Below are positions 15,498-17,058 of a stretch of DNA of 17,058 bases, piece by piece. Below the pieces are notes generated by a model, which was given only the letters and a program-made list of their open reading frames with translations, had not been told where the DNA came from and ran no database searches. Both the position numbers and the translations under genes were made by a program. The DNA comes from a virus (lineage: Duplodnaviria; Heunggongvirae; Uroviricota; Caudoviricetes). Numbering within the stretch: position 1 is the first letter of the stretch; every line of letters starts with the position of its first letter. The DNA lies in the IMG/VR virus record IMGVR_UViG_2609460221_000007, positions 1 to 17,058 of that record; one strand, 5' to 3'.

Positions 15498-16466
15498 ATG
15501 GCTGATATATCAACACCCAACCTCGACTATAACGATATGCTGGAGGCGTGGGATATTAACGACGCACTGATGGGCGGTACGCTTGAAATGCGCAGGCAGG
15601 GGGAAAATTATCTCCCAAAATGGCCTAACGAAGATGAAGACGCTTATAAAAAACGCCTGTCTGTGGCTACGCTACTTCCTGTGTATGAAGAAAGCATCAA
15701 GCAAAATATTGGGCGCATATTTGCAGAGCCGACAGTATTGAGTGAGGAAACGCCGGCAAAAATCAGGGAATATGCAGAAAATATCGACATGGAGGGGAGC
15801 CGACTGGATGTGTGGGCGCAGCAATTTTTCAGCCTCGCATTTCAGTATGGTGTGGCACATGCGCTGGTGGACTATCCACGAACGGATATGAAAGAGATTC
15901 GGACAAAAGCCGATGAAAACGCGGCCGGTGGTCGTCCGTACGTTACGATGCTGAATCCACGCCAGGTTATTGGATGGAAATCGAAAGTTGAAAAAGGGAA
16001 AGTTGTTCTCACTGATTTGCGTATAAAAGAGGTCATCATTATTGATGGTGATGATTTCGGGCAGAAGAAGGTGGAGCAGATCCGCCATATTATGCCCCGT
16101 CGAGTTGAAATTTATCGACGTAGCGAAGGCACTAATGGCGAATCTGTCTGGACGCTTCATGAGTCATGGAATACCAGCCGTGATGATATTCCTCTGGTAA
16201 CACTGTACACGAAGAAAACAGGATTTATGCGTGGTACACCGCCATTGCTTAATCTTGGCTTGCTGAATATCAAGCACTGGCAAAGCCAGAGCGAGCAGGA
16301 CAATATGAACCGCCCCGGGTTTCCTGGAGAGTGTTTTATCTGTGAACTCAGGCTGCCAGATCATCGTTTCCGATGGAAGCATAATAAGCTTTTTCTGCTT
16401 CTGCCGGAGGAGTATGGCCCAGCCTTTCCAGCAATCGTCGATTGTTATACCAGTCCACCCACGTGA
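15498..16466 (+). pseudogene. putative portal protein gene, 3' portion replaced by an IS3-family element (native sequence probably ends near 16330-16345)
   Basis: The gene immediately after TerL is the usual portal position; the ORF runs into the end of an oppositely oriented transposase gene and terminates after 322 codons, too short for a portal. The exact junction cannot be fixed by eye. Confidence 0.45.
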
Positions 16467-17058
16467 GTGTGGCCAGTTCCACTTCTGCACGGTTTTTCCA
16501 GCTCTTACGGTGTATTACCTCCGCTTTGTAAAGGCCATTGATGCTCTCCGCCATCGCGTTGTCATACGAGTCGCCTGTACTTCCTGTTGATGCCAGTAAT
16601 CCGGCTTCCTTAAGCCGCTGTGTGTAGGCCAGCGATACATACTGAGAACCTTTATCACTGTGATGGACCGTGCCGGACGGTCGACGGGCCCATAACGCCT
16701 GCTCCAGTGCATCCAGCACGAATGTCGTTTCCATGGACGATGAGACCCGCCACCCCACGATGTATCCGGCAAACACATCAATGATGAACGCCACATAGAC
16801 GAAGCCCCGCCATGTGCTGACGTAAGTAAAATCAGCCACCCACAGCTGGTCAGGTCGTTCTGCCACGAACTGACGGTTTACGCGGTCGCCTGCGGCAACG
16901 GCTTTCCGGCTGATGGTCGTACGGACCTTTTTACCCCGGAGAACACCGGCAAGTCCCATAACCGCCATGAGGCGCGCCACTGTACATCTGGCTCTGGCCA
17001 CCCTGATTCCTTCCCGTAACAACTGACGCCAGACTTTACGCACACCGTACACCTGATG
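16330..17058 (-). mobile_element. IS3-family insertion sequence (partial; right end inside window, remainder beyond 17058)
   Basis: The transposase stop at 16348-16350 is followed within a few nt by a TGA… sequence consistent with an IS3-type terminus (5'-TG…CA-3'); the boundary is estimated, not aligned. Confidence 0.65.
16348..17058 (-). CDS. IS3-family transposase OrfB (DDE integrase core), 5' end outside window
   Basis: Translation contains the DDE transposase signature region (…WVADFTYV…HHSDKGSQY…[18 protein letters not shown]…); the frame remains open to the window edge. Confidence 0.85.

Follow-up and report, generated by a model that had tools for sequence, protein, structure and literature searches.

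A gene that runs into a transposon at the very edge of a sequence raises two questions, namely what the gene was and what became of the element that carries it. The DNA analysed here, called the window below (17,058 nucleotides, the whole of IMG/VR record IMGVR_UViG_2609460221_000007, Caudoviricetes), poses both. The open reading frame that follows the large terminase gene runs directly into the 3′ end of an oppositely oriented transposase gene, and an earlier note made from the letters and their open reading frames had proposed that this is a truncated portal gene in a domesticated prophage, kept by its host for accessory functions. We have asked whether the gene is a portal, how it was broken, and whether the break has anything to do with domestication.

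An interrupted portal gene

The right-hand part of the window was compared with several E. coli sequences. NZ_AP022069.1 (strain WP4-W18-ESBL-09) is the sole complete chromosome that aligns unbroken over the junction between portal and insertion sequence in a megablast search of complete E. coli genomes. OZ043948.1 was found by searching for contigs that encode exactly the chimeric protein. NZ_CP023820.1, where the locus is uninterrupted (portal gene of 1407 bp, 468 aa), was used as the empty-site reference. The features are as follows.

13119..14213, plus strand: terminase small subunit gene (PF03592; phrog_51, E=2.8e-76), with one N at 13812
14185..15495, plus strand: terminase large subunit gene, intact (PF03237, E=3.7e-33; PF17289, E=3.4e-10)
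15498-16466, plus strand: portal/insertion sequence chimeric ORF of 322 codons, directly after the large terminase gene
15498..16305, plus strand: N-terminal fragment of the portal gene, 808 nt (codons 1-269 plus 1 nt of a 468-codon gene)
16303..16305, no strand: left copy of the target-site duplication, ATA (on both sides of the insertion sequence in NZ_AP022069.1 and OZ043948.1, once in NZ_CP023820.1)
16306..16466, plus strand: read-through tail of the chimeric ORF, 53 codons of insertion sequence antisense plus stop, without portal homology
16306..17058, minus strand: IS629-type (IS3-family) element, the 753 bp proximal to its right inverted repeat, aligned contiguously over the junction to NZ_AP022069.1 and cut by the window end
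16306..16330, minus strand: terminal inverted repeat of the element, right end relative to the transposase (TG...CA; 23 of 25 positions match the other end in the full NZ_AP022069.1 copy)
16348..17058, minus strand: 3′ part of the transposase gene orfB, 236 codons plus stop (stop at 16348-16350)

In the ORF list of the window the chimeric ORF starts 2 nt past the stop of the large terminase gene. The large terminase is 100% identical to that of NZ_AP022069.1, and the small subunit differs from its counterpart there at the residue affected by the N (99.7% identity). Residues 1-270 of the chimeric ORF match the portal family phrog_145 (E=1e-98), covering positions 7-279 of the 493 in the profile, while Pfam detects only 22 positions of DUF4055 at residues 249-270 (18.6 bits, cut-off 25 bits); no NCBIfam model for this portal was found. 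The intact 468-aa allele contains a full DUF4055 domain (PF13264) at residues 249-386 (E=5.5e-45), and in NZ_CP023820.1 its gene stands between those for the large terminase and a Mu-F-like minor head protein (PF04233, Phage_Mu_F). It also resembles solved portals of the DUF4055 type over residues 49-458, with E-values from 7e-18 to 2e-11 (chains 10ec_A and 11cq_A, E ~7e-18; 8xb5_A, E=1.7e-11). By contrast, the product encoded in the window stops matching these structures at residue 269 and lacks 189 of the 410 aligned residues (46%). The profile match, the likeness of the intact allele to known portals and the position after the large terminase gene bear out the suggestion that the ORF is a portal gene. 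GenBank records named 'Escherichia phage vB_EcoS-...' also carry an intact portal gene, but they are no proof of virions, since their source paper shows them to be prophages predicted by PHASTER and not isolated particles.

Alignment of the window with NZ_AP022069.1 and the uninterrupted locus of NZ_CP023820.1 fixed the break point to the base. Portal homology ends at 16305, and the terminal repeat of the insertion sequence, TGAACCGCCCCGGG..., starts at 16306, directly past the last portal base. Up to this point the portal fragment agrees 100% over 808-809 nt with uninterrupted alleles in many complete E. coli genomes (megablast). The native residues are therefore 1-269, ending in ...SEQDN, and residues 270-322 are translated antisense of the insertion sequence, in line with the end of the profile match at residue 270 and the divergence from the intact allele at 16306. 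The element thus interrupts the gene itself, at codon 269/270 of 468, and is not downstream of a complete portal ORF, and its transposase is on the minus strand, so that the truncation by an oppositely oriented IS3-family element was read correctly in the earlier note. After 753 bp of the element the window stops. The right junction and the second ATA lie beyond, and the 3-bp duplication is therefore seen in full in NZ_AP022069.1 and OZ043948.1 while the window itself holds the left copy.

The insertion sequence and its far side

The minus-strand OrfB protein (16348-17052 and beyond) matches the NF033516 IS3-family transposase equivalog with E=3.2e-76 (257 bits vs a cut-off of 160) and contains rve (PF00665, E=4.9e-28), rve_3 and HTH_21 domains. 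In both NZ_AP022069.1 and OZ043948.1 the full copy measures 1310 bp and is bounded by imperfect inverted repeats (TG...CA), of which the TGAACCGCCCCGGG... end is the one present at 16306. A literature search for this terminal sequence gave no match. In the full NZ_AP022069.1 copy orfB is read in frame -1 relative to orfA (frame 0). The two overlap at nt 315-378, a region that lies past the end of the window, and an ALIL frameshift-stimulating pseudoknot (RF01497) is detected in this copy with 121.5 bits. Over its 1310 bp it is 98.0-98.1% identical to annotated IS629 elements in LC567824.1, LC567828.1 and AJ556162.1. The matching elements, from Stx-converting phages and phage BP-4795, are annotated as 'insertion sequence: IS3 family IS629' or 'IS629 transposase OrfA/OrfB'. 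The duplicated target is ATA at this site in NZ_AP022069.1 and OZ043948.1 and likewise 3 bp long at two independent insertions described below (ACC and GAA). Judged from these alignments the element is an isoform of IS629, a name that it receives through annotated copies and not through the ISfinder type sequence. In length, ends, orfA/orfB layout, ALIL and 3-bp duplication it is like the IS629 annotated in Stx-converting phages, an element abundant in E. coli O157, while about 2% nucleotide divergence separates it from the annotated IS629 copies.

The copy in the window is not quite that of its relatives. Compared with the NZ_AP022069.1 and OZ043948.1 copies it has a synonymous G/A change at 16534, and 6 bp are duplicated in tandem and in frame at 16987-16992, giving OrfB an additional Ala-Arg. 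The duplication is absent from the ~29,000 matches to the element in complete E. coli genomes, where the best identity was 99.1%. The window is collinear with NZ_AP022069.1 from position 4027 on, at 99.8% identity, and a megablast search with the whole window gave no complete genome that is collinear with its first 4 kb. Because the insertion sequence copy differs (6-bp duplication, one SNP) and the first 4 kb are not collinear, the strain of the window is, on this comparison, distinct from the relatives that share its junction.

A low-quality assembly in which a contig ending in the portal gene was mis-joined to a repeated insertion sequence could in principle produce such a picture, and Ns beside homopolymers as well as a 6-bp duplication seen in no other copy of the element might be taken as signs of it. 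However, two complete chromosomes of separate origin, NZ_AP022069.1 and OZ043948.1, have the same junction to the base, together with a proper target duplication. These independent assemblies effectively refute the artefact, which we consider extremely unlikely.

The far side of the element in the strain of the window is out of view. IS629 has been tied to genomic deletions (PMC9943667), and the element might border a deletion or an inversion, through recombination between insertion sequences or in association with IEE, so that the C-terminal part of the portal gene is gone or has been moved. The position of the right junction outside the window, the private changes in the element and a left-hand 4 kb unlike that of the junction-sharing relatives would all be compatible with such a rearrangement end-point. 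On the other hand, both retrievable genomes with the same left junction, NZ_AP022069.1 and OZ043948.1, contain a clean 1310-bp insertion flanked by ATA on both sides, followed by the rest of the portal gene and intact downstream genes. Since site and orientation are identical, the insertions should descend from the same ancestral event, and a rearrangement peculiar to the window is very unlikely. From these relatives we infer that the right junction in the window's own genome is also that of a simple insertion. A simple insertion makes a precise prediction for the DNA past position 17058. It should contain 557 bp more of IS629, ending in ...CCCGGGGCGGTTCA and followed by ATATTCTTCATGTTGCCCGCG and by the other 199 codons of the portal gene; the end of the element would thus be followed by ATA and then by TTCTTCATGTTGCCCGCG....

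A full-length Rac-type prophage

The earlier note had also held that the lysis genes, hok, trkG and the cargo genes are intact, and for most of them this is borne out. The holin, endolysin and Rz proteins, the ParB/Srx-like protein and the TAGT-type glycosyltransferase-like protein are identical to those of NZ_AP022069.1 and NZ_CP023820.1, as are the hok protein, with an Rfam sok match at 4039-4210, the DUF1971, DUF1367 and DUF1364 proteins, the Q-like DUF1133 protein and the large terminase. For trkG the statement needs a qualification. Read literally, the gene is in three pieces, split by single Ns beside homopolymer runs (at 9720, 10821 and 11055). The window holds 10 Ns, 7 of which are extra bases beside homopolymers. 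Most likely, the Ns that split trkG are base-calling ambiguities, and without them the gene is identical to that of the relatives.

The gene content connects the element with the cryptic prophage Rac of K-12. Window positions 9031-11465 (a remnant of Rz, trkG and the start of ynaK/ParB) are 99.7% identical to K-12 Rac, and the uninterrupted prophage of NZ_CP023820.1 aligns with Rac in seven collinear blocks of 90-99.9% identity, in sieB-ydaF, ydaT, ydaV-ydaW, trkG, ydaY to tape measure, and lom. An 11.5-kb block is missing from K-12 Rac. It extends from the middle of the ParB-like gene, of which ynaK is the stump, to ydaY, and comprises terS, terL, portal, head and tail tube genes. K-12 Rac has further lesions, e.g. 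IS5 in lomR, whereas the element of the window is full-length with one insertion sequence; trkG is kept in Rac at 99.7% identity. By these alignments the element is a full-length Rac-type lambdoid prophage with a single documented insertion sequence lesion, and Rac of K-12 belongs to the same family as a member that has decayed. A prophage kept for its cargo does fit the known end-point of this family, since K-12 Rac lost the genes from terS to tail tube and keeps trkG.

Loss of function, domestication and decay

Tailed phages need a complete portal for DNA packaging and for attachment of the tail. With 269 of 468 native residues left, the product of the window has lost 199 C-terminal native residues, including nearly all of DUF4055. 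As this removes 46% of the structure-aligned region as well, a packaging defect is likely, i.e. the portal would be knocked out and the prophage on its own would be unable to make infectious virions. A polar effect of the insertion on downstream late genes is also possible.

We consider it very probable that the locus arose in a full-length Rac-type prophage by simple insertion of an IS629-type element into its portal gene, and that this disabled autonomous virion production recently and not as a step of domestication. The history would then be as follows. The 1310-bp element, landing at an ATA site, separated codons 269 and 270 of the portal gene of this lambdoid prophage, duplicated 3 bp and came to lie with its transposase gene antisense to the late operon. 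From then on the portal gene would yield 269 native residues with a nonsense tail of 53 residues. The portal ring would be incomplete, and the prophage alone would release no infectious virions, while the lysis genes and the cargo (hok/sok, trkG, the ParB-like gene and the glycosyltransferase-like gene) would have been left untouched by the insertion.

Such a defect may be partial or temporary because co-resident prophages can help and IEE can excise IS629. As a rule a portal is matched to its own capsid and terminase, which speaks against rescue by a portal from another resident prophage, and a search of NZ_AP022069.1 with the portal gene gave the two pieces of the interrupted gene and nothing else, so that this genome holds no second near-identical portal. 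Yet defective prophages can be packaged with the proteins of co-resident ones (PMC2669165). In O157 Sakai, a head defect did not keep prophages from being packaged, apparently with the aid of others (PMC2669165). Excision promoted by IEE would restore the portal itself; IEE does promote excision of IS629, and excision of an insertion sequence restored lacZ function in STEC O121 (PMC9943667, PMC9397093). That the defect is in fact reversed or complemented in one of these ways we regard as unlikely. The defective lambdoid prophages of O157 Sakai are a close comparison, being alike in their morphogenesis defects and in the retention of lysis and cargo genes (Asadulghani et al. 2009, PMC2669165). 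They differ in that they typically have several defects each, with packaging by complementation established experimentally for several of them, whereas one lesion is documented here.

What finds no support is the claim of a domesticated prophage kept for its cargo. It would mean that the host lineage was selected to retain a packaging-dead prophage for trkG, hok/sok and the like, with the insertion as an adaptive grounding. K-12 Rac lends this some plausibility, as a member of the same family that lost terS to tail tube by the 11.5-kb deletion and kept trkG. However, in the genomes that share the junction the structural genes are kept as completely as the cargo, and the decay expected of a cryptic prophage is not seen. 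Every gene checked downstream of the insertion sequence is present in NZ_AP022069.1 and OZ043948.1, namely the C-terminal portal fragment, the Mu-F-like minor head gene, DUF6651, a P22-type capsid gene, connector proteins, tail terminator, tail tube, YdaY, tape measure, tail-tip proteins, J and Lom. The DNA flanking the element is, moreover, nearly indistinguishable from that of an uninterrupted prophage, for which strain 7/2 served as the reference.

Upstream flank, OZ043948.1 vs strain 7/2: 10.8 kb, 0 mismatches, 1 gap
Downstream flank, OZ043948.1 vs strain 7/2: 8,851 bp, 1 mismatch
Downstream flank, NZ_AP022069.1 vs strain 7/2: 17.4 kb, 3 mismatches, 2 gaps

Overall the flanks are 99.97-99.99% identical to the uninterrupted prophage. 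Nor is the defect one that a lineage has conserved. The portal gene is present in 755 of 5,426 complete genomes, and it is uninterrupted in 730 of these 755 carriers (at least 96.7%, counting single matches over at least 80% of the gene), the identical junction being found in one. The chimeric protein occurs on 3 contigs larger than 1 Mb in a large assembly collection, and an exact search for the 41-nt junction in GTDB species-representative genomes gave no match. Near-identical flanks, rarity and the retention of structural genes together point to a recent event that has left no time for a signature of selection. They indicate a single insertion in a small clone, which was probably neutral or nearly so. 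Furthermore, the lysis genes and the early-region genes of the window are open, so that induction would probably still kill the host; a host left unprotected in this way would hardly correspond to a tamed state. For these reasons we find domestication very unlikely.

Independent IS629 insertions in the head module of other genomes could be held to favour selection all the same. Strain CH459 has an IS629 at portal codon 47, with the target duplication GAA and a copy that differs at 22 positions, and strains WP7-S18-ESBL-09, E28 and E09 have one in the minor head gene, with the target duplication ACC. Together with the insertion at portal codon 269/270 this makes at least three independent insertions in the head module, all with the transposase antisense to the late operon. 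It would be tempting to conclude that the head module of Rac-type prophages is a recurrent target of selected 'grounding' by IS629, through which hosts immobilise the prophage and keep trkG and other cargo. In that case the insertion of IS629 would be the first step on a path that leads to K-12 Rac. A rough estimate of chance, assuming ~4 copies of the insertion sequence per genome, 755 genomes, a 2.5-kb target and a 5-Mb genome, already gives ~1.5 occurrences, against which the five genomes observed, representing three events, are no convincing excess once clonality, and how well prophage DNA tolerates insertions, are allowed for. A hot spot for IS629 or an orientation bias in the head module is thus unproven, expectation and observation being close, and the shared orientation is an ascertainment effect because the search joined pieces on the same strand only. 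We therefore hold recurrent selection of such insertions to be very unlikely, and retain the simple and recent insertion as our reading of the locus.

Taken by itself, such an insertion is commonplace. IS629 is a major documented cause of gene inactivation in E. coli, in prophage and chromosomal genes alike (PMC9943667), and the RefSeq annotation of NZ_AP022069.1 already treats the DUF4055 gene as a pseudogene split on either side of an IS3-family transposase gene, so that the junction is nothing new in kind. Beyond annotation its significance is slight. For annotation, the 322-codon ORF is to be described as a portal pseudogene of 269 native codons interrupted by IS629, and not as a gene. The locus is also a warning that intact cargo beside one broken structural gene does not amount to domestication when the break is a recent insertion. 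For the family, it shows a complete Rac-type prophage taking what would be its first inactivating hit, with the cryptic Rac of K-12 representing a later stage of decay.

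IS629 insertions in the head module

Related Rac-type prophages carry two further, independent IS629 insertions in this head module:

L004 4142-5451 (NZ_CM166353.1, strain CH459): IS629 at portal codon 47, target-site duplication GAA
L003 5789-7098 (NZ_AP022207.1, strain WP7-S18-ESBL-09), also in strains E28 and E09: IS629 in the Mu-F-like minor head gene, target-site duplication ACC

The element at portal codon 47 is a variant with 22 differences. The number of these insertions is about what a rough chance expectation would give.

The IS copy that splits the window's portal gene carries a synonymous G/A change at 16534 and a private 6-bp in-frame tandem duplication at 16987-16992, which adds Ala-Arg to the HTH_21 region of its transposase, OrfB. 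The duplication was present in none of the about 29,000 IS places matched in complete E. coli genomes, and it is either a genuine mutation acquired after insertion or an assembly error. In NZ_AP022069.1, an E. coli chromosome with the window's portal-IS junction, the annotation marks the tail tube gene (L001 25721-26682) as frameshifted; OZ043948.1 shares that junction, and there the gene is a complete ORF of 320 aa. The frameshift is either a second lesion specific to the strain or an error of sequencing.

The window's portal also occurs in GenBank ON470581-ON470616 (for example L005), records named 'Escherichia phage vB_EcoS-...' whose source is clinical isolates. These records are prophage regions predicted by PHASTER, several of them partial, rather than isolated phages.

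N bases and the left end of the window

The window contains ten N bases, at 1087, 4236, 5417, 7972, 9469, 9720, 9820, 10821, 11055 and 13812. Compared with near-identical genomes, seven of the ten are additional bases beside homopolymer runs. Taken literally, these break up trkG (about 9614-11077), leaving three pieces, and put the final codons of Rz out of frame. They are most likely base-calling ambiguities of the source assembly.

The left end comprises the following features:

1-4126 (first ~4 kb): Ren-like exclusion protein, nucleoside deoxyribosyltransferase-like fragment, HNH endonuclease and several unknown ORFs
4039-4330: hok/sok type I toxin-antitoxin module
4039-4210: sok (Rfam RF01794, 106.7 bits)
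4208-4330: hok, 41 codons, with a single N at 4236

Among complete E. coli genomes sharing the remainder of the window, none is collinear with 1-4126. Clustered SNPs in the sok/hok locus, at 4033-4126, mark a recombination boundary.

Genes between trkG and the terminase, and the comparison with K-12 Rac

Between trkG and the terminase genes lie:

11212-12928: ParB/Srx-like protein (263 aa) and an overlapping TET-associated-glycosyltransferase-like protein
12864-13115: 83-codon ORF, directly upstream of the 364-aa TerS

The glycosyltransferase-like protein matches PF20691 (E=1.2e-34) and phrog_842, and is named 'GREB1-related' in some RefSeq records; together with the ParB/Srx-like protein it could form a pair acting in DNA modification or associated with packaging. 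The 83-codon ORF, whose counterpart in relatives is annotated as a 69-aa hypothetical protein, matches an internal stretch of the small-terminase family phrog_309 (E=8e-23). Its product is possibly another small-terminase-like protein or an HTH protein.

The K-12 Rac prophage differs from the full-length relative with an uninterrupted portal (NZ_CP023820.1) by a clean deletion of ~11.5 kb (L007 16631 against L002 13968-25529), which brings ydaY up against the middle of the ParB-like gene, with the loss of everything from terS through the tail tube gene. K-12 ynaK, at the deletion edge, is the truncated stump of the ParB-like gene. In K-12 Rac, trkG is 99.9% conserved.
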